Positions 1 to 15,176 of a stretch of DNA of 18,407 nt are shown here, piece by piece. This DNA comes from an uncultured bacterium (GTDB taxonomy: Bacteria > CSSED10-310 > CAZUFC01). The notes beneath the pieces are model-generated. The model did not search any database. It worked only from the letters and a program-made list of their open reading frames with translations, and was not told the DNA's origin. A program made the position numbers and the translations under genes. Within the stretch, counting starts at the first letter, position 1, and each line of letters begins with the position of its first letter. The DNA is taken from contig CAZUFC010000076.1 in the NCBI GenBank assembly GCA_964619725.1, positions 22,290 through 40,696 on the forward strand, given 5' to 3'.

Positions 1-2110
1 TCAGTGTGGGCGAACGGGTCGGACTGCATGTTGAGGTAGGCGTCAGTGTGGGCGTCCTGGTTGGGGTGTTAGTTACCGTGTAGCTGGCGGTCGGCGTTCG
101 GGTCGGGGTTCTGGTAGGAGTCAGCGTCGACGTCGGCGTTCGAGTCGGGGTTCTGGTCGGACTGCATGTCGCCGTAGGCGTCCGCGTCGGGCTTGAAGTC
201 GGAGTTCGTGTAGGACTCAACGTCGATGTCGCGGTCTTCGTCGGCGTCAGGGTCGGACTGCATGTCGACGTCGGCGTGCGCGTGGGACTTGACGTCGCCG
301 TCGCGGTCAGGGTTGGAGTTCGGGTGGGACTCAACGTCGACGTCGCGGTCTTCGTCGGCGTCCGGGTCGGACTGCATGTCGACGTCGGCGTGCGCGTGGG
401 ACTTGACGTCGCCGTCGCGGTCAGGGTTGGAGTTCGGGTGGGACTCAACGTCGACGTCGCGGTCTTCGTCGGCGTCCGGGTCGGACTGCACGTCGCCGTC
501 GGCGTGCGCGTAGGGCTTGACGTTGCCGTCGGGGTCAAGGTCGGCGTCAGCGTAACGGTCTGGGTCATCGTCGGCGTTAAAGTGGGAGTTTGGGTCGGCG
601 TTGGAGGTATCCAGTTGCCGTATTCTATTTCAACGTATTCCGAGGGGTCCAGATCAAGCATTACTTCCAGGCCGGTAGTGCATTGCCATCCCGGTTCCAG
701 AGTTTCACGCAGATAATATATCCCGACGGGTACGGCGCTGAAGGTATAACTGCCGTTATCCGTCGAGCCGCTTTCATATATGGTCGTTCCATTTTCTTCA
801 TAGAGGGTAAACCACCAGTCGTCCAGAAACGGTTCGCCCAGGTCGCGCATGCCGTCGCCGTCCAGATCGTGAAATTTTTTGACGGTTACGGCCGGCAGGG
901 GGATGTTGCCGAAATTGACCACCAGGGATTCCCCTGTAACCAAATCAACCGTCTGCGATACAGGCGTCGTATTTTTCCAGTCAGAAGGCAATTCTTCCAT
1001 CAACGTATATTGCCCGGGGGTCAGGCTGTCGAAAATGGCGTTGCCGTTGCTGTTGGTCGTCTTCGTATCGATTAAAATGCTGTTCTGATACAGATAAATC
1101 GTCCAGTTTTCGAGGTTTTCTTCATTGTCCTGCTGAACGCCGTCCATATTGATGTCCAGAAACTTGTGCCCTATAATCGTTCCTTCATACAACCATTCTC
1201 CGATGGCTTCCGAAAAGACGTTTCCCGTAACCGGTTCCGCAAGAACAAGTTTCTGCTTACCCGGATCAACGGGCACAAAGATAGTGCCCCGAGGCAGGGA
1301 AAAAGTCGCCTCCGCGGTTATATTCGCCAATCCGGGATTCCCGGTGGTATTCGTTACAGTGAAAAAAGCTTCGCCGTATTCGTTCGTTATCACTGTGGAA
1401 TCGCTTAATACTCCGAAATCCGTACTTAAATCGACTTCAAGCCCTTCCACAGGCTGCAGGTTCTGGGTAGCTTCCACAGTATAAGGAATAACGGTTTCCG
1501 GCAGCGTCACCGTGCCGTATGCCGGAGATATCGATAAATCAGGAGGGTCCTGAGGCAATACGCAGGGATCAGGAACAGAATCGATTATCTCCTGGGTTCG
1601 TTGCTTTACCTCCGGATAGGAATCATCCACAATGAAACCGTCTGAAAAATACCACACCGCAGCCTGTCTCGCCGCAGCTTCCATATTGGTCAATTCCGGT
1701 CCCGGAGGCAGGGAATTCAGTATCCAGGTTATCTGGCAGGGCGTCGGTCCTGCGCTGGTGAACTGGTCGCCGATATATATCGGGTTCAATAAATCTATGC
1801 AGAATGAGTGCACCAGATCGCCCGTGTCCGGCGGTATCCGCACGTTTATCACGCCAGAGTAAATCGATTCTCCGCCGTACGCATTGCCGGAAATATACAT
1901 GCCCGGATAAATGCTTTCAATTTCTCCCGTTACAGGGTCCCGGTCGCCGTTGGTGAGACTCATTACCGAGCCTTTGGACAAACCCGCCGCATTCGGCAGA
2001 CCCATGGTTCCCGTTGAGGAGGGCTCCTTCGAACGACGGAAAGTCGCTCCCGCATCAGCGCTGCAAAGGACGATCGCCAATAAAAAAATGAGAAAAATTT
2101 TACTCTTCAT
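1..2110 (-). CDS. Secreted thioester-domain (TED/TQXA-like) surface protein with two SdrD-B/CnaB-like domains and a Pro/Thr-rich stalk; 3' end truncated by the window edge
   Basis: Hand translation from ATG at 2110 (GGGGGA upstream) is open for 703 codons to the edge. It gives signal peptide [24 protein letters not shown] (Cys104, 1799-1801), [10 protein letters not shown] (1640-1669), KQKLV (Gln286, 1253-1255), two repeats of the form KFxDxxxDG...YxLxE...(F/Y)GN, then a TPT-rich repeat region. Absent from the ORF track, probably because it has no stop codon in the window. Confidence 0.9.
213..491 (-). repeat. 114-bp (38-aa) near-perfect tandem repeat, about 2.4 copies, inside the Pro/Thr stalk (stalk spans about 1-607)
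   Basis: GGTCGGACTGCA recurs at 251, 365 and 479 (period 114). The unit translates as [38 protein letters not shown]. Confidence 0.9.
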
Positions 2111-2177
2111 AAGCTTAATCCCCCGATTTTGATTCCGGGCGTTTTCGTTTCCCGGCTAATTCGTCTGTATCAGAATA

Positions 2178-2207
2178 ATTTTAATATTTCACAGCCGGGA
2201 ATGTCAA
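2178..2207 (-). promoter_or_regulatory. Putative sigma70 promoter for the thioester-domain gene
   Basis: Minus strand reads TTGACA-N18-TAAAAT, about 70 bp upstream of the ATG at 2110. Confidence 0.55.
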
Positions 2208-2444
2208 ATTCATTTTGTGAATTTTCTGTATTATATTAAAAATTCGGTGTTGATCCAAATAACCGGGTTATTTGGAATCGATTGCAAAGATTCCGCTATC
2301 GCCGACATCAGGGATTATTACGGATAAAAGAAGAATTGATTCGCGAAAATTAAAATCCCCTTTTGATCAGTCCCAAAGATATTTTCCTGCTGTGACCTTC
2401 CCGTTTAGTATGACGAATTTTTTTGAATAACGATTATTTTTATG

Positions 2445-2762
2445 GTGTATTTTTCCTAAGTCAAGGAAGGCAAGAATTTGCGAAGGAAGTATTATTTAGT
2501 TTTTGTCCATAAACGGCGAATTTCCCCAAATTCTGCGTCAGTCTTCGGATTTGCTCAGTCAACGTATCAGCAACATCCCTGCCTCGCAAATCATTACCAT
2601 CCTTGTCTTAAGAAAAATTCGCTCGTTTATGGATCAAAAACCGCAGTGACTGTCCAGCATTAAATTTTGAATCGACAATCGAGTTTATGGACAGTCACTA
2701 TTTATACGTTGACTGAGCAAATCCGCATGCTGACGCATCTTAAAAAAATTCCCCGTTTACGA
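2445..2762. mobile_element. Nested miniature inverted-repeat (MITE-like) elements, non-autonomous
   Basis: The inner element 2499-2641 has imperfect ~25-bp terminal inverted repeats (GTTTTTGTCCATAAACGGCGAATTT / AAATTCGCTCGTTTATGGATCAAAAAC). Segments 2451-2486 and 2704-2761 are reverse-complement copies of its two halves. A further 12-bp perfect inverted repeat lies at 2645-2656/2688-2699. No transposase ORF is present. Confidence 0.6.
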
Positions 2763-3116
2763 AAAGAAAGTGGCGTTTATTTCCCCTTTTATAGAGATCG
2801 GTCGCATTAGCAGCGACCGATAGGTCAGTCCGGACTGAACGAAACTATCGGCCTTTGAATTTGGATGGCAGGAAATAAGTTGTTTGGAGCAACAAACTGA
2901 AGAAAAAGGAGGGAATGGCGAAATCGCATTCATTTTCTGTTTTGTCATTTTCGAGACTATTAATTTCATCTTTCGCCGCCCCTCAGTTTTTCATTCAGAA
3001 CGTTTACTCAAATTAACATACAGTCCTCTGCTCCGGATGTTTCATTTTTTTCCAGTTTCCAGGAATAAATTTATCGCCTGCCGATTTTTTTTATCGGCTG
3101 TTTTTGCGGTAAAAGA

Positions 3117-5742: not shown

Positions 5743-8427
5743 ATGTTTTTAAGGAAATCGGGAAAAGGATCGCCGCCGTCTGAAGCCGGTTACAGGTTTC
5801 GAGGCAGCCGAGTGATCATTTTTCTATTGTCGTTCATCTTTCTTTGGGGGACTTTTTCTTTGACGGTTTACGCGCATTATTGTCCGAAGACTTTTACTTA
5901 TGATGAACACGGCGAGCCTGCGAACGAGGTGTTGCTGACGGGAAGTTTTACAGACTGGGCTTCTGAGCCCCCGGATGCTTATGAGATGGAAGACGACGAT
6001 AATGACGGCATATGGGAAGTAACGGTTGAATTGGATATTGGGACTTATCTTTACAAGTTTATAGTGGATGGAGAGTGGGTGCAGGACCCTGACAACAGCG
6101 ATGAGAGTCCGGACGGACACGGCGGTTATAATTCCGTAGTGCACGTTGAATGCCCCTATCCGCGATTTCTGATAACCTCATATAACGTGGACGACGATCA
6201 GCGAAGATGTGAAGCGACATTGGAGATGCAGCCTGCGGGCGCTGATCTTGACGGGACAACGGTAACGGTGACGCTGGATCACGAACCGGCTCCGGGCACA
6301 TGGGACGTAAACGGCAACGCGGTGACGCTGGACGTCGGTTCTCTGGCCGACGGCATTCATGACGTAAGGGTTTACGGAGAGGACCTGGACGGCCGGCCAG
6401 TGGAGCCTGCGATACTAAAAGCCTACATCAACGTTTCAGAAGATTGGCATGATGCTACGCTCTATTTTACAATGACGGATAGATTTTTAAACGGCGATTC
6501 CGGCAATGATGCGCCGCTGAACGACATTCCCTGGCAGACGAATTACCAGGGCGGCGATTTTCAGGGCATAATCGACAAGATAGAAGATGGATACTTCGAA
6601 GACCTGGGGGTCAACGCTTTATGGATATCCTGGCCGGGCGACAATGCCGAGAATCCGGGAGGCGGGTACTACGGGAACACTACTGAATGCGGTCTGCAGT
6701 GGGGCGACCCCGTGGACTGGATATGGGTTGAATTCAGCGCTTTTCATGGTTACTGGCCTGCGAAACTTTATGAATCGGAACAGCGTTTCGGCACGATGAG
6801 CGAATTGAACGAACTTGTAGACAAGGCTCACGAACGGGGCATTCGCGTGCTTCTGGACCTGGTAATCAATCATGTTCATGAAGAATCCCCTTATTTTTCC
6901 GGGAGCCCGGATTATTTTTTCCATTATCCCATGCAGATATGCCAGGAGACCTGGTGGCAATTCCCCATCACATGCTGGTTCACGGCTTTTCTGCCTGATC
7001 TGAATTTCTCGCAGCAGGGCGTCATTCGAGATTTTCTGAATATGGCGGTCTGGTGGGCCAAACAGACGGGTTGCGACGGTTTTCGCGTTGATGCTTTGAA
7101 ACACGTGGAATTTGATTTCATAACCTCTTTAAGGTCCCGCATGGAAATGGAGATGGAAGGTACGGGAGTTGATTTTTATCTAGTGGGCGAAACTTTTACG
7201 GGGAATCCCGATGATATCGTTTATTTCCTGGGCGATGATCTGGTGCATGGACAGTTCGATTTCCCCCTTAACCTGCAGATATTAAAGGCCATGGCGTGGC
7301 AGGAGATAGGAATGGACGCCATGCATTCCTCCGGTCGTGAGTTTTATGACTTATACGGCGATGATGCCCTCATGTCGACCTTCATCGGGAACCATGACAT
7401 TGCCCGTTTCATCAGTGCAGCGGCAGGCGATCTGTTTTGTCCGGCCTGGGATAACATGAGTCACGTATCTCAAGGCTGGCTGAATCCGCCGAATACGCCT
7501 GACGAATACTGGCCCTATCAGAAACTACAGTTGGCATTGACCTATATTATGACTTTACCGGGCATACCCCTTATTTATTACGGCGATGAATTCGGTCTGC
7601 CGGGAGCCGGGGACCCCGACAACAGAAGAATGATGAAGTTCGGGGGAGATTTGAACAGCAATCAGCAGCAAACTCTCGATTATACGAAGATGATAGGAAA
7701 ACTGCGGCGTGATCATCCGGCTCTGCGAGCGGATTCCTGGCCTTACACGCTTCACGGAGAATGGTCGTTCCTGGTTTATTTCCGATATCATTCCGATGAG
7801 CGAATTATCGTAGCGCTAAACAGCAGCGATCAAAGCAGACAGCAAACAGTAGGTCTGACGGGGACCGGACTGGACGACGGAGACGTTTTAACGGAACTGA
7901 TCCGCGGCGGAACGGTAACGGTTCAGGACAACAGCATCACGGTAAGCGTTCCCGGCAGAAGCGCATCCATATACTCAAAAATGTACGTCTCTCCCACGCC
8001 CACTCCTACCGGTACCGGAACCTACAACCCGGACACGCGCACGCCTACGCGCACAGTCACTCCTACGCCTACGGGAGGTCCGACCGATATCACCATTGAC
8101 GTTCAGACGAGCCAGGCTTATTACGAAACCGGCGACCGTTTCTGGTTGAAGGTGTTGATAGAAAATGGAGGTCCGGACATTATTACGGATATGTATGTTA
8201 TGCTGGATGTTTACGGTGAATTTTTCTTTCATCCCTCCTGGACTTCAGAAATGGAGTATGAAATTCGCGATCTCCTGGCGAACTGGAGTTACGAATTCAA
8301 GCTTTTAGACTTCTTCTGGCCTGAAACGGGCGGTACCGCTGACGGAATCGTATTCTGGGCTATACTGAGCGACCACGAGACCCTTAACGGGCTCTGCAGC
8401 GATCAAACTGCTTTCGGATGGAGATAA
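5743..8427 (+). CDS. Secreted GH13 alpha-amylase-family glycoside hydrolase with N-terminal CBM48/E-set-like domain, Pro/Thr linker and unassigned C-terminal domain
   Basis: AAGGAGG RBS and hydrophobic signal segment. E-set/CBM motif LTGSFTDW...YLYKFIVDGEW..DP. GH13 conserved regions DRFLNGD, GGDFQGI, HGYW, DLVINH, GFRVDALKH, VGE, IGNHD and PGIPLIYYGDEFG. Linker at about 7990-8085. Confidence 0.92.
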   Translation: MFLRKSGKGSPPSEAGYRFRGSRVIIFLLSFIFLWGTFSLTVYAHYCPKTFTYDEHGEPANEVLLTGSFTDWASEPPDAYEMEDDDNDGIWEVTVELDIGTYLYKFIVDGEWVQDPDNSDESPDGHGGYNSVVHVECPYPRFLITSYNVDDDQRRCEATLEMQPAGADLDGTTVTVTLDHEPAPGTWDVNGNAVTLDVGSLADGIHDVRVYGEDLDGRPVEPAILKAYINVSEDWHDATLYFTMTDRFLNGDSGNDAPLNDIPWQTNYQGGDFQGIIDKIEDGYFEDLGVNALWISWPGDNAENPGGGYYGNTTECGLQWGDPVDWIWVEFSAFHGYWPAKLYESEQRFGTMSELNELVDKAHERGIRVLLDLVINHVHEESPYFSGSPDYFFHYPMQICQETWWQFPITCWFTAFLPDLNFSQQGVIRDFLNMAVWWAKQTGCDGFRVDALKHVEFDFITSLRSRMEMEMEGTGVDFYLVGETFTGNPDDIVYFLGDDLVHGQFDFPLNLQILKAMAWQEIGMDAMHSSGREFYDLYGDDALMSTFIGNHDIARFISAAAGDLFCPAWDNMSHVSQGWLNPPNTPDEYWPYQKLQLALTYIMTLPGIPLIYYGDEFGLPGAGDPDNRRMMKFGGDLNSNQQQTLDYTKMIGKLRRDHPALRADSWPYTLHGEWSFLVYFRYHSDERIIVALNSSDQSRQQTVGLTGTGLDDGDVLTELIRGGTVTVQDNSITVSVPGRSASIYSKMYVSPTPTPTGTGTYNPDTRTPTRTVTPTPTGGPTDITIDVQTSQAYYETGDRFWLKVLIENGGPDIITDMYVMLDVYGEFFFHPSWTSEMEYEIRDLLANWSYEFKLLDFFWPETGGTADGIVFWAILSDHETLNGLCSDQTAFGWR

Positions 8428-8431
8428 AACA

Positions 8432-9367
8432 ATGAATCGGAACAATCGAACAGCAAAGGTTATTTTAGTATTGAGTTTAGTAATTTTGACGAATGCCGTC
8501 GGCTACGGCGGCGACAGAGAGCTGATGAACGTCTGGCACATACCGACCAATGAGGAACCGCCTACGGTAAACATGCGCAATCCCGTTCATCCGACCGCTT
8601 CTGATGATGCCGTTTATTTCTACGTCGGCGGATGGCCTTCAGGAACCATTTCGACTGCGACGCTCCATTACAGATTCGACGAAGAGGAATGGTCGACAGC
8701 AGATTTCGCTTATGATTCGACTCAGGAAAACGACAACGAATATTTCATCGTTAATATTGAAGGTCCTTTTTCCGACGGTTCTGTTTGCGAATATTACATT
8801 CAAACGGACAATCCCGAATACGATACGACCTACGTCTACGGAACAGACGACACGACGAATACCACAGCGGATCAGAATACGGCCATGGAATCTCCCTTTT
8901 CCTTCACCATCGGCTCCGACGTCTCCCCTACTCCCACTCGAACGCCTACCCAGAACCGTACCGCCACTCCCACCCGAACGCCTACTCAAGCTCCTACATA
9001 TACGCCAACGGCTGAAGCCGGAGATACAGAAGTAGAAATATTCACCAATCAATCCGTGTATCGCGGAGGCGACCTTTTCCGGTTATTGATAAGAATCCAC
9101 CATCCCGGAAACACAATAGAGGTAGATCAGTATGCCGCATTGAATTTCGGCTCTGAATTCTGGTACTGGCCCAATTGGGAATACGGAGTTCCAAGCTCAG
9201 TCGCCAGAACGCTGGAACCGCGCCATGATTACGAAGATATTTTGCTTATGTTCGGATGGCCTTACGGCGCCGGAAGAATCGAAGGTATCCGCTTTTACGG
9301 AGCGCTTACGCAACACGATTCGTACGAGTTGATAGACTGGGACGTCTGCGAATGCTCGGCTGAATAA
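8432..9367 (+). CDS. Secreted protein: Ig-like/possible carbohydrate-binding N-terminal domain, Pro/Thr linker, and a C-terminal domain homologous to that of the upstream amylase
   Basis: Starts 4 bp after the amylase stop. Signal peptide, acidic aromatic-rich beta-type domain (WHIP...MRNP...EYYI), TPT linker at about 8924-9010, C-terminal domain 9023-9364. Confidence 0.8.
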   Translation: MNRNNRTAKVILVLSLVILTNAVGYGGDRELMNVWHIPTNEEPPTVNMRNPVHPTASDDAVYFYVGGWPSGTISTATLHYRFDEEEWSTADFAYDSTQENDNEYFIVNIEGPFSDGSVCEYYIQTDNPEYDTTYVYGTDDTTNTTADQNTAMESPFSFTIGSDVSPTPTRTPTQNRTATPTRTPTQAPTYTPTAEAGDTEVEIFTNQSVYRGGDLFRLLIRIHHPGNTIEVDQYAALNFGSEFWYWPNWEYGVPSSVARTLEPRHDYEDILLMFGWPYGAGRIEGIRFYGALTQHDSYELIDWDVCECSAE

Positions 9368-10916: not shown

Positions 10917-11313
10917 TCTATTTTCCTTCACTGGTAATAGTTCTTTGATCGTTCAGAAGCCATACCTTCATTAATGAATTATATATACAATTATGCAATC
11001 TTCAACCTTCCGCATTCATCCGGCCAAGCCACGGCCAGGCAGTCTGCCCTACAGAGCTGCTGCCGTCCGGCAAACTTCGGTTTATGAGGGGCATGCATGC
11101 ATAGCCCGCATTTCTCATACAAAACCTGTTACGAAGGTCCATATCCCCGCGGATTCAAGCGATGAAAGAGGCCGGGCGACAGGATCAATTGACACAGGCT
11201 TTTTATTTTGTTTTTATTCAGGATTGTGTTATGGCGTTCAGCGACTTACGCTGTTTTCAGGATTAGTTTTTGTATTTTCGTGACATTTCATGTGCAATTA
11301 TCGGAGGATCAGT

Positions 11314-13293
11314 ATGAATCGAATTAAGTTTTCAACTGTTTTGGCGGCGCTGAGCTTGTTATTCGCATTGCCGGCCGGCGCGTTGGATGATGAAGAGATA
11401 TGGGATATGGTGAAGCAGGCAAAGGAAGAGGAGAAATATCCTGATGCCGGAGCGGTGATTATTTTCGACCGGTATGAATCTTATTATAAGGAGACGGGAT
11501 CGGGAACGACTTATAATGAGATGATAATATTGATAAGAAAAGACGAAGCGGCGGTCCGATATCCTTCGATTCATTATGATTTTAATCCTCGCACTTCCGA
11601 CACGACCATTATGGAGGTAAAGGCATACCGTAGTGACGGCGAGACGGTCGATGAGTCGCCGCCTGATCGATTCAGAACCCTTCCGGCTCCGACTCATTCC
11701 ATGTTCTGGAACTTCATCCGCCGCATAGCGGCCGTTCCCCGGCTGCATGAAGGGGATGCGCTGTATTATAAAGTCCGGCGCAAGGGATTGAATTTAACTT
11801 ATCTGGATGAGCCGGAAGAGCAAAATGAGTATATTCCGCCGCAGGAAGGTCATTTTTTCGATACGGTTTACTTTGAAGACCGACTCCCGATAGTCAGGAA
11901 ACTGTATATTCTGCATTGTCCCCGCAGCCGGCCTGTACAGTATAAAGTGCTGAACGGAACGGTGCGGCCCAGCGTCGAATTCGAACCGGAAGGATTTTTA
12001 TACAAATGGGAACGGGAAGATGTTCCTGCTTTTGAAGGGGAACCGCGCGGCGCATCCTTCAGCGAATCGGCCTGCAAACTGGTTATGGCCTCTCTGGAAA
12101 ACTGGGAAGCCAAATCCCGCTGGGCTTATGAAGTCAATGAGCCGCAATTCGTCATAAGCGATGAGATGCAGAAAAAGGTAGATGAACTGATTCAAGATGC
12201 TGAGACGGACTATGAAAAAATGTTTAATTTGCTGCACTGGGTAGCCGAAGAAGTTCGTTATCTGGGAACGGACATGGGCGAAGGCGAAGGATACACGGTG
12301 CATCGAACGGATGAAATATTTTACGAACGCGCCGGGGTTTGCAAAGACAAGGCCGCTGTTCTGGTTTCGATGCTGAGAGCGGCGGGTTTCGATGCTTTTT
12401 TTATTTTGACGCTCGCCATGGAAAAGGCTGCAGATGTTCCTGCAGACCAGTTTAACCACGGCGTCGTGGGCGTCAGACATAAAGACGGTTCCTGGACATA
12501 TCTGGACCCGACCTGGGCGCCCAAAAACAGACCGCTCTTCAATCCCCTCGAACAGGAACAACCCATTCTTACAGCAACGCCGGAAGGAGAAGACCTGACT
12601 CATATACCCTACAGTCCGCCGGAAGATAATCCCTGGAATATTTCAGCTCAAACCGTAATTTCTCTCCACCAACCCATGCACGCTTCCCTGCACTTCAGCG
12701 GCGACGGTTTCCCAGACGGAAGAATGAGGTCCAATATTGCCTACAGGCTTAAAGAAGAACGCCCCCAATACTTCGGCATGCTGGCGCAGAATATCTCTCC
12801 CTTCGCACGTGTTATTGATTTCGATCACGGAGACTTCCTGGATTTCAATACCATGATGACGCTTGAACTGGAAATCGAAGCCGATAATTACGCCATACAT
12901 CTCGATGACCGCATCTTCTTCATTCCTCTCCTCTCCAAACCCATCTTCAATCGCGCCTATGAATCGGATTACCTCTTCGCCGCAGACCCAGAAAAACGTA
13001 AATATGATCTCACCGTTTCCTGCACCAGAGCGCTTCACTTTCAGGAGAAAATTAAATTGCCCAGGGGATTCGAAGTGGAAGAGGTCCCGGAAAAAATTGA
13101 AATGGACGGTCCCGCAGCTTCGTTACATTACGAAGTCACTCAGAAAGGTCGAAACGTCTCGATAGACAGAAAAGTAACCATTAAAAAACGTTGGATACCG
13201 CCCGATGAATACGGACAATTCAAGGAAATTGTGGATAAAGTGAAAGAAATTTCGGAAACTTACCTGTCGGCAGTGAAAGGGGGATCAAAATGA
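11314..13293 (+). CDS. Exported DUF3857 + transglutaminase-like domain protein with intact Cys-His-Asp triad
   Basis: ATG at 11314 after GGAGG, followed by a signal peptide. Motifs WVAEEVRY, GVCKDKA (Cys), FNHG (His) and YLDPT (Asp). C-terminal IKLPRGFEV...IPPDEY region is typical of this architecture. Confidence 0.85.
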   Translation: MNRIKFSTVLAALSLLFALPAGALDDEEIWDMVKQAKEEEKYPDAGAVIIFDRYESYYKETGSGTTYNEMIILIRKDEAAVRYPSIHYDFNPRTSDTTIMEVKAYRSDGETVDESPPDRFRTLPAPTHSMFWNFIRRIAAVPRLHEGDALYYKVRRKGLNLTYLDEPEEQNEYIPPQEGHFFDTVYFEDRLPIVRKLYILHCPRSRPVQYKVLNGTVRPSVEFEPEGFLYKWEREDVPAFEGEPRGASFSESACKLVMASLENWEAKSRWAYEVNEPQFVISDEMQKKVDELIQDAETDYEKMFNLLHWVAEEVRYLGTDMGEGEGYTVHRTDEIFYERAGVCKDKAAVLVSMLRAAGFDAFFILTLAMEKAADVPADQFNHGVVGVRHKDGSWTYLDPTWAPKNRPLFNPLEQEQPILTATPEGEDLTHIPYSPPEDNPWNISAQTVISLHQPMHASLHFSGDGFPDGRMRSNIAYRLKEERPQYFGMLAQNISPFARVIDFDHGDFLDFNTMMTLELEIEADNYAIHLDDRIFFIPLLSKPIFNRAYESDYLFAADPEKRKYDLTVSCTRALHFQEKIKLPRGFEVEEVPEKIEMDGPAASLHYEVTQKGRNVSIDRKVTIKKRWIPPDEYGQFKEIVDKVKEISETYLSAVKGGSK

Positions 13294-15176
13294 AGTTCAA
13301 ACTTGTTCAGATTCCTGCGCTCAAGCATACGACCATCGTGCTCTTTTCGTTTTTTCTGGTTTGCTGTATTTTTTCGGGTTATTCCAGCGCTGAGAATACG
13401 CACGAAAAACATCCCCATGCAATAATTCTCACGGATAAACATGATTTCATCCTGGACGATCAGGGATTATTGACGGAAACCTGGCGCAGAAGAGTCCAGG
13501 TGTTCAGCGAAAATGGGATAGATATGTTTGCGGACGTCAGAGTATTCTATAATTCATTGGAGGAAAGCCTCGACGTCGTTGAAGCCTTTACTTTGAACAG
13601 CCGGGGCGAAAAAATACCCGTACCCGACACCGCGATAAACAGGACGCTTCCGTTCGATCTGGCGCCTTATCCCGCTTACGGAGATTTCCGGATACTGACC
13701 GTATCCTTTGTCGGCATCGACAAAGGGTCGATTCTTGAAATGAAATTGGAGCGCACCCGGTTGAAGGAACCGGATTACCCGTGGTGGGAAAAACAAATTC
13801 ACATCGGCGATGAGACTTTTATCGAATCCCTGGATATTTCCGTGGTCTGTCCTCCTGGTTCATTCCTCGCTTCTGAATTGATAGGCAAAAAACTTGACCC
13901 GGCAAAATCAGAAAGTGACGGTCTGGAAGTCCTGACCTGGCGGTTTGAAGATATCGAACCCATTCTCTACGAATCAAATACCGGCGGCTATTATGATCTT
14001 ATGCCCGTTCTCTGCCTTTCAACATGCCCATCATGGGAAAAGGCTGCGGCTGAACTGAAAAATCGTTTCTACGCGGGCATGTCTGAATCGACCGAGTTGA
14101 AGGAAAAAGCGATTGCTCTGACGGAAGAAGCTCTCGGTCCTGCCGCCGTCATCAATGCCCTTTATGATTATTGCCGGGATACTTTCAGAAGCATCGACAG
14201 GGCGCCGCACTGTTTCCATTACAAAACCGAATCACTGGAAAATATTCTCAACAGAAACTATGGACACAAGCTCGATCAGGCTCTCCTGTTCTCCGCTATG
14301 CTGAAAGAATGCGGGGGCGCGGTTTCACTAATTGCGTCATCAGGGGCAAAACATTTTCCAAACAATGTTGCCGGTCTATCCTTTTTCGATGACATTCTTA
14401 TACAGGTTCAACTGAAAGATGAGAAAACTTTGCTGGACTTTGAAAGCAGTCCCGGGTTCTGGAATCCTTTCAAACATCCGGATCGTAAATTCCTGGCCGT
14501 TCTCGACGACGGATTGCAGTGGAAAGAGACACCCGGATGCTCGCCCGAATCCAACCATGCAGAACTTGAACTGGATATCACTATCGACCGGGATAAAAAT
14601 GTTACAGGCTCTTTCTATATTGTCCTTCAGGGCTTCTTCTCCCCCTTCCGCCAAATCAGAAAAGACACTCAATCCTTTATCAAAGATGAACTTAATTCCC
14701 TGTTCGATGAAGCGGAAACGGAAGAATATCGCATACTCTGGAATAAAATTGAAAAATGCAGCATCGCCGGAAAGTTTAAGGCAAAAATGAAAACAGAATC
14801 CTTGAATGAAGACTATGAAATACAGCGCTTTCCCGTTTTACCTGTCGTGGCGGAATCCCTGCCGGAACCCCTGCCGGTCGAAAGAACCCACCCTTTCCAA
14901 TTGAATTGTTGCTTTACCGAAAAAACGCGCCTGGCGATAAAACTGCCCCAAAATTGGACAATAGCGAAACCGCCTAAAAATGTCTCATTTGAAAACGACT
15001 TCGTGAAAATCGAAACATCATTTGATCCCAATAGCGATAAAAAAATATGGGAACGAACCATGTCGATTCGTCAGGACGTTGTTCCATCTGAGGACTATAA
15101 TGAATATCTTGTCTTTAACGCCTTTTTCAGAAAACTCGATTATAACGGCTTAATCTATAAACTGGAGAATGATTGA
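13290..15176 (+). CDS. Exported DUF3857/transglutaminase-fold paralogue lacking the catalytic Cys and His
   Basis: ATGA overlap with the upstream gene, signal peptide and the same architecture (LSTCPSWE, IKLPQNW, VPSEDY). GHKLDQA replaces GVCKDKA and FDD replaces FNH. Confidence 0.78.
   Translation: MKFKLVQIPALKHTTIVLFSFFLVCCIFSGYSSAENTHEKHPHAIILTDKHDFILDDQGLLTETWRRRVQVFSENGIDMFADVRVFYNSLEESLDVVEAFTLNSRGEKIPVPDTAINRTLPFDLAPYPAYGDFRILTVSFVGIDKGSILEMKLERTRLKEPDYPWWEKQIHIGDETFIESLDISVVCPPGSFLASELIGKKLDPAKSESDGLEVLTWRFEDIEPILYESNTGGYYDLMPVLCLSTCPSWEKAAAELKNRFYAGMSESTELKEKAIALTEEALGPAAVINALYDYCRDTFRSIDRAPHCFHYKTESLENILNRNYGHKLDQALLFSAMLKECGGAVSLIASSGAKHFPNNVAGLSFFDDILIQVQLKDEKTLLDFESSPGFWNPFKHPDRKFLAVLDDGLQWKETPGCSPESNHAELELDITIDRDKNVTGSFYIVLQGFFSPFRQIRKDTQSFIKDELNSLFDEAETEEYRILWNKIEKCSIAGKFKAKMKTESLNEDYEIQRFPVLPVVAESLPEPLPVERTHPFQLNCCFTEKTRLAIKLPQNWTIAKPPKNVSFENDFVKIETSFDPNSDKKIWERTMSIRQDVVPSEDYNEYLVFNAFFRKLDYNGLIYKLEND

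Follow-up and report, generated by a model that had tools for sequence, protein, structure and literature searches.

Two adjacent genes in an 18,407-nucleotide stretch of DNA (hereafter the window) from an uncultured bacterium of the GTDB lineage CSSED10-310 (contig CAZUFC010000076.1) encode an exported alpha-amylase and a smaller exported protein, each of which finishes in a tail of about 110 residues behind a Pro/Thr-rich linker. The locus raises the question of what such a shared terminus is for. Our answer, which on balance we consider probable, is that the domain is a sorting or surface-retention handle borne by exported proteins of this lineage. The size of the family, its placement, the breadth of its cargo and the sorting tails found in its stead on related proteins all bear on this reading.

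The shared terminal domain

Comparison by BLASTP of the last 113 and 114 residues of the two proteins (8086-8424 against 9023-9364) gave 33 identities over 100 aligned positions with one gap (E 2e-16), and a MAFFT alignment of both tails contained 34 invariant columns out of 114. A preliminary description of the window, made without database searches, had proposed homologous tails with about 34 identities in 113 residues and a single gap, each behind a Pro/Thr linker; the homology is borne out and the coordinates proposed for the tails proved exact. It had also held that the N-terminal parts are unrelated, as indeed they are: CBM48, GH13 and amylase C-domains are recognised in the first protein, while the second, taken whole, has no Pfam or NCBIfam match.

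Neither tail is matched by any model of Pfam (2025 copy) or NCBIfam (June 2026) at E<=1, in agreement with the earlier statement that LPXTG, SLH, PEP-CTERM, dockerin and type IX secretion system (T9SS) C-terminal domain (CTD) sequences are lacking, and a characterised family is likewise missing from these curated libraries. For 30 paralogs the same libraries gave no match at E<=10 except three and two isolated rows at chance level, and models for SLH, dockerin, LPXTG and known carbohydrate-binding modules (CBMs) matched neither the window tails nor these paralogs. Full-text searching of the literature found no description of such a domain, which is weak evidence since a text search cannot find a domain that is defined by its sequence.

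The AlphaFold2 model obtained from a 30-paralog alignment (pLDDT 96.2, pTM 0.87) is an eight-strand Ig-like sandwich. Its best Foldseek match was Spo0M (E 4.2e-5), followed by FnIII-like domains of GH3 enzymes, MG domains of C3, NPC2 and a porphyran CBM; fold searches thus returned only generic Ig-like sandwiches, none of them outstanding. Chains of T9SS CTDs were absent from among the listed fold matches (Foldseek, VIA), an absence that does not exclude a shared fold. In the ESM Atlas, clusters named CARDB scored 0.86, under the level that counts. Matches of a 30-copy profile to the YWTD repeats of LRP2 and LRP6 among PDB sequences (E 0.004-0.5) were dismissed as spurious, being short W-rich motif matches. 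In our view the domain, about 110 residues long, forms a family that is new in sequence but common in fold.

Alignment and model together place the invariant aromatic positions W56 and W82-P83 in loops, outside the strands. If the strands run up-and-down in sequence order, the N-x-G, P-S-W and W-P-x-x-A-G loops, the linker entry and the F-G-W terminus would all lie at one end of the modelled sandwich, an arrangement that, if true, would suit a binding site.

Family size, placement and cargo

The window's own genome (G000) is a metagenome-assembled genome (MAG) whose 344 contigs sum to 9.17 Mb, with a completeness of 90.9% and a contamination of 6.5%. Searched with a profile of both window copies it gave at least 150 matches, and a hidden Markov model (HMM) iterated over all stop-to-stop frames of at least 60 amino acids converged, through rounds of 213, 224, 227 and 226, on 226 copies in 225 open frames, so that the family is by no means confined to the two proteins first noticed. 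The 223 domain genes amount to 161,140 codons, or 5.3% of the bases of the genome. Paralogs share only about 25-40% identity, yet they retain invariant F, W and P positions as well as a C-terminal motif.

That motif marks the end of the protein. The distance from domain to stop is at most 40 residues for 221 of the 226 copies (median 2), and of the 198 copies aligned up to the last model position, 188 have 0-5 residues left before the stop. Domain proteins finish in ...[FW]-G-[WYF]-E or -G-P, the consensus terminus being [FW]-G-[WYF] followed by one to four residues. Over the 40 residues upstream of the domain Thr and Pro contribute 18.8% and 18.0%, compared with 7.6% and 6.4% across whole proteins, and Pro, Thr and Ser together make up at least 40% of this segment in 137 of 214 copies. 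A half-conserved Leu-Gly directly precedes the domain (Gly 53%, Leu 38%). Signal-peptide-like N-termini are enriched: a strict home-made heuristic accepted 154 of 223 domain proteins against 138 of 800 control open reading frames (ORFs) of at least 300 amino acids, and a looser one accepted 184 of 224 against 269 of 600 controls.

To the question, raised in the preliminary description, whether the domain is always C-terminal on signal-peptide proteins the answer is a strong tendency and no strict rule, since five copies in the genome are not terminal. We judge these five to be real, and they are included in Table 1. Those labelled C153 and C40 sit directly behind the signal peptide. Placement at either the N- or the C-terminus is better suited to an anchoring or binding handle than to a strictly C-terminal translocation signal. 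Two of the proteins with a non-terminal domain, C153 and C179, also contain FGE-sulfatase domains; the fold of the FGE-sulfatase type of catalytic domain is found too in the T9SS ring protein PorK/GldK.

The cargo is remarkably diverse. Pfam matches at E<=1e-6 were sought in 60 domain genes drawn at random from the 223 and found in 31, representing about 25 families, leaving 29 without a match. Peptidases include six C25 gingipain-like enzymes as well as M6, M14 and S8 members, and glycoside hydrolases are represented by GH13 (the window amylase itself), GH57, GH123 and GHL10 with Amidase_3. Two 5'-nucleotidase types, PLD, EEP and an amidohydrolase were also recognised, together with two beta-helix and two FG-GAP proteins; the remainder takes in LTD, sortilin/BNR, Kelch, CBM30, CBM96, transglutaminase, lactonase, RskA_C and AAT. 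The expectation that many exported proteins would use the domain is thereby upheld: the tagged cargo is a general secretome rather than one substrate class, and no single substrate accounts for a spread over about 25 Pfam families. Among 11 matches from a word-indexed search of longer proteins, one was named 'right-handed parallel beta-helix repeat-containing protein [bacterium]'.

Fourteen species represent the phylum. The domain is present in 11 of them, from four families, with 57 to more than 150 matches each, and three genomes (87-96% complete) have none. From 1.84 billion cluster representatives the profile recovered 2,426 proteins at E<=1e-3, the number at E<=1e-10 being 1,587; among the top 150 representatives, the domain ends within five residues of the C-terminus in 146, the exceptions being P0060, P0126, P0142 and P0140. 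Weaker relatives at E<=1e-3 occur in four of 290 genomes of other phyla (each at least 80% complete), where the best E-values range from 3.8e-14 to 1.4e-4: two congeners have 32 and 25 matches, one genome has four and one has a single match. Twenty loci were fetched from these four genomes. In twelve of their 21 hits no more than 11 residues separate the domain from the stop, and five hits come directly behind a signal-peptide-like N-terminus, the latter in proteins of 330-630 amino acids (loci L228, L233, L234, L242 and L243; genomes G222, G058 and G054), and Pro/Thr linkers were not evident at the 20 loci. The search of related MAGs that the preliminary description had called for thus finds the family concentrated in one small phylum; the superfamily extends past the phylum, and its Pro/Thr-linked, massively expanded C-terminal use is special to this lineage.

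Our best indirect evidence for function comes from a phylum genome without the domain, G001. C25 peptidases were chosen for the comparison of tags since orthologs of the amylase cargo were not found in the other domain-bearing genomes. Fourteen C25 matches were obtained in G001 and 12 loci fetched (L193-L203 among the G001 loci). In eight of the 12 C25 ORFs the C-terminus consists of a VPTLS-like motif followed by a hydrophobic helix and then a basic tail; another three have different ends, and the last is cut short by the edge of its contig. One of the tails scores above the IPTL-CTERM cut-off (24.9 bits against a required 20.5), and five are matched weakly by an exosortase-signal model. The IPTL-CTERM model is too short for reliable counts of tails across genomes, where it returns small numbers of weak matches throughout. 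At least 29 ORFs of the domain-bearing source genome have a Pro/Thr linker, the motif [IV]P[AST][LMV][SG], a helix and a basic tail (e.g. C8:95371-114582, C132:2028-16487 and C2:8682-15734), and among the 223 domain genes not one ends in a hydrophobic helix plus basic tail. The new domain stands where related cargo has a recognised tail for sorting or anchoring, and a sorting or anchoring role is supported because homologous cargo in the sister genome bears its sorting tail at the same position.

Known terminal tags and rival explanations

In T9SS cargo the CTD described for RgpB is a seven-stranded Ig-like beta-sandwich (PMC4804311). The new domain, modelled as an eight-strand Ig-like sandwich, resembles T9SS CTDs in lying at the extreme C-terminus of Sec-exported proteins (188/198 copies within five residues of the stop; 154/223 proteins against 138/800 controls with a signal-peptide-like start), in being carried by dozens to hundreds of the proteins of one genome, in the diversity of its cargo, C25 gingipain-type peptidases included, and in its restriction to a lineage. 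It differs in having about 110 residues and eight strands rather than about 70-90 residues and seven strands, in lacking the PNPF / G.Y / KK tail pattern present in an alignment of control CTDs, in usually following a Pro/Thr linker and in having a few N-terminal copies. Four phylum genomes (G000, G003, G006 and G007; 86-94% complete) gave no match to SprA (TIGR04189) or to the type-A CTD (TIGR04183; Por_Secre_tail in Pfam) and a single hit at E 0.009 to PorV (NF033710), whereas in a control Calditrichota MAG the same models gave a SprA match of 344 bits, 138 type-A CTDs and 34 PorV matches of up to 246 bits; the GldM model was uninformative, as it found nothing in the control genome either. 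Alignment by hhalign of 30 domain copies with 20 T9SS CTDs of the control genome returned a probability of 0.84% over nine aligned columns.

Other known modules fare no better. Against 25 CARDB domains (PF07705) of the same genome hhalign gave a probability of 0.44%, with no Pfam CARDB hit, and CARDB domains there are internal repeats of giant proteins, in contrast to the terminal placement of the new domain. The genome has 27 CARDB matches, and its giant ORFs with internal CARDB repeats range from 4,800 to 12,092 codons (C34, with an open frame of 12,092 amino acids; C8; C2; C132). The bacterial pre-peptidase C-terminal (PPC) domain (PF04151) is a C-terminal beta-sandwich of secreted hydrolases, peptidases among them; the new domain shares this placement and general fold, but has no Pfam match and a cargo far wider than peptidases. 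SLH domains, dockerins and CBMs are terminal modules joined to a catalytic part by a flexible linker, retained on the protein and found at either end. The new domain also stands behind a linker and at either end, and unlike them has no Pfam match, no repeat and no Ca-binding pattern. As for the exosortase signals PEP-CTERM and IPTL-CTERM (TIGR04174, NF033207), the likeness lies in a C-terminal tag behind a Pro/Thr linker on many exported paralogs; their tails, however, are about 25-35 residues of motif, membrane helix and basic cluster, and the new domain is globular and soluble, without a hydrophobic tail.

A handle of the kind we favour would work on proteins laid out as Sec signal peptide, cargo, Pro/Thr linker, handle and stop. 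Such a protein would be exported by Sec; its folded C-terminal domain would then bind some constituent of the outer envelope or matrix and in this way steer the protein to the cell surface or keep it there, and the extended linker would let the cargo reach outward. The domain would probably be kept on the mature protein as an anchor, its removal as a translocation signal being less likely. A retained anchor is the more likely of the two because of the long Pro/Thr linkers and the N-terminal copies behind a signal peptide (C153, C40 and five of the 21 other-phylum hits).

Several points weigh against this reading. The signal-peptide counts depend on home-made heuristics, and the genome is an incomplete MAG with the contamination given above. 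The strict C-terminal bias could come in part from the mode of spread, through 3' fusions, beyond any function. A neighbour test, in which 1,623 ORFs (at least 150 amino acids) within 6 kb of a domain gene were clustered and compared with all 8,185 such ORFs, found no gene family clearly enriched beside the 223 domain genes (baseline 20%; top paralog families 16-50%). A protein like C153, combining domain and FGE-sulfatase, was rejected as candidate machinery, being present in three of the 14 phylum genomes. Omp85 and secretins are present in all 14, with or without the domain, and so do not discriminate; each genome has 2-6 Omp85-family matches (in most, frames of up to about 800-1,000 amino acids) and 2-7 secretins. 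Neither the neighbour test nor the C153-type screen, then, delivered a partner gene. The preliminary proposal of a secretion or anchoring tag with its own receptor accordingly survives in part: its predictions on distribution are matched, no partner gene was found, and the non-terminal copies blunt the version in which the domain is a secretion signal.

That version, an export signal of T9SS type, would have the sandwich recognised in the periplasm by an outer-membrane translocon and cut at the linker, possibly by a sortase-like protease. We consider it unlikely, even though layout and scale agree with T9SS cargo (138 type-A CTDs in the control MAG; 226 copies here, none of T9SS type), both systems serve one and the same range of cargo with its many C25 gingipain-like peptidases, and the position is extreme C-terminal with a conserved [FW]-G-[WYF] end. 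The half-conserved Leu-Gly before the domain could mark a processing site. The lineage also has an outer membrane, given Omp85 in 14 of 14 genomes, so that exported hydrolases need a way across. Against all this stand the N-terminal copies, both in the source genome and at other-phylum loci, the long Pro/Thr linkers, pointless if the domain is removed, the lack of any candidate machinery gene, the failure to detect SprA and PorV in four phylum genomes with a positive control, and the negligible hhalign probability against T9SS CTDs. An adhesion or carbohydrate-binding module of a generic kind, which would bind an external polymer, particle or community matrix and so keep enzymes on their substrate or in a biofilm, seems to us rather improbable. 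The order of cargo, Pro/Thr linker and module is typical of CBMs, the invariant aromatics W56 and W82-P83 lie in loops and the domain is placed at either protein end, all of which speaks for it; but proteases, nucleases, phosphatases, amylases and adhesin-like repeats have no common substrate, tagged proteins take up 5.3% of the genome, sequence comparison gives no match to a known CBM family, and the sister genome fills the same position in homologous cargo with a membrane-anchoring sorting tail.

Very improbable, in our estimate, is a passive structural domain, whether folding aid, stalk or protease-protection cap, spread by duplication. In its favour, Ig-like domains are often spacers and the fold matches are unspecific. 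Yet invariant F, W and P positions and the C-terminal motif have been kept among paralogs as divergent as those described above, the domain is attached to unrelated cargo families, 11 species maintain it in numbers from 57 to more than 150, and in almost every case it closes the protein after a flexible linker, a position in which a stalk would be purposeless. A bolder reading makes the domain a label for the cargo of an outer-membrane pathway for secretion and attachment that still awaits discovery. Such a pathway would have a translocon and a shuttle of its own, and perhaps a sortase of C25 type, and would do in a candidate phylum where T9SS parts were not found the job that T9SS does in Bacteroidota; this we regard as a doubtful proposition.

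The sorting or retention handle would be of interest in several respects. C-terminal sorting and anchoring tags define bacterial surface display, and the known classes led to dedicated machines, namely sortase, exosortase and T9SS. Here a tag non-homologous to the known classes marks about 5% of the genome in a phylum known solely from MAGs. With a model of the domain in hand, annotators could immediately pick out the lineage's secretome, and the split of the phylum into 11 genomes with the domain and three without offers a clean presence/absence profile for finding partner genes. The domain might bring to light a new means by which diderm cells keep enzymes on their surface; if it is merely a retained binding module, it would still be a useful new domain family, though not a new system. 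Only the discovery of a dedicated machine would make it categorically new; otherwise it would be a new, non-homologous member among the C-terminal sorting and anchoring domains.

The two window genes and their surroundings

The two genes lie on the same strand, and only 4 nt separate the ORFs at 5743-8427 (894 amino acids) and 8432-9367 (311 amino acids), for which reason they are probably co-transcribed. Both proteins have N-termini resembling Sec signal peptides, as judged by eye. In the first, Pfam recognises AMPK1_CBM/CBM48 at residues 49-136, Alpha-amylase at 243-636 and Alpha-amylase_C_2 at 670-744; the catalytic domain (PF00128) scores 145 bits against a cut-off of 22 (E 4.1e-42), which places it in GH13. 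Its copy of the terminal domain ends ...FGWR and the stop is the next codon. In the second protein the N-terminal module has a fold match to the N-domain of amylases that stands out from background, an N-domain type which we take to be CBM34, and the terminal copy was recovered in the profile search at residues 198-309 of 311 (P0002, E 4.7e-27). An alpha-amylase and a starch-binding-module protein would form a co-operating pair, and that both bear the handle is expected if they sit together on the cell surface.

Table 1. Features of the window and non-terminal copies of the domain elsewhere in the same genome
Feature	Position	Strand	Basis
Gene 1: exported GH13 alpha-amylase with C-terminal domain	5743..8427	+	ORF translation (894 aa, stop included), Pfam
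Pro/Thr-rich linker of gene 1 (32 residues, SPTPTPT...GGPT)	7990..8085	+	Translated sequence
Copy 1 of the ~110-aa C-terminal beta-sandwich domain	8086..8424	+	BLASTP to copy 2, family HMM, AlphaFold2 model
Gene 2: exported 311-aa protein (signal peptide, CBM34-like module, Pro/Thr linker, C-terminal domain)	8432..9367	+	ORF translation
N-terminal module of gene 2: beta-sandwich like the starch-binding N-domain of neopullulanase-type amylases	8507..8923	+	
Pro/Thr-rich linker of gene 2 (33 residues)	8924..9022	+	Translated sequence
Copy 2 of the C-terminal domain	9023..9364	+	BLASTP, MAFFT, family profile
C153: signal peptide + domain + TIG + ... + FGE-sulfatase	C153:3829-6570		Pfam
C179: FGE-sulfatase + domain + FGE-sulfatase	C179:522-2942		Pfam
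C40: signal peptide + domain + 5'-nucleotidase			Pfam
C104: neprosin + domain + about 130 further residues			Pfam
C112: one internal and one terminal copy			Pfam

Elsewhere in the window, an ORF on the minus strand at 2-2110 runs past the left edge; with its SdrD_B and SpaA (prealbumin-like) repeats and a weak match to a thioester domain, it looks like an adhesin. The G+C content is 60% in the first 1 kb and 40% at 2001-3000. The window also encodes a fumarase, for which a scan of other contigs returned matches from mixed phyla at no more than 63% identity, too little to indicate a taxonomic placement. Tandem paralogs at 11290-13293 and 13290-15176 on the plus strand, whose stop and start overlap by 4 nt, each combine DUF3857, a transglutaminase core and DUF3858, and they are followed downstream, on the opposite strand, by genes for a PHO4 phosphate transporter and a PhoU-like protein.

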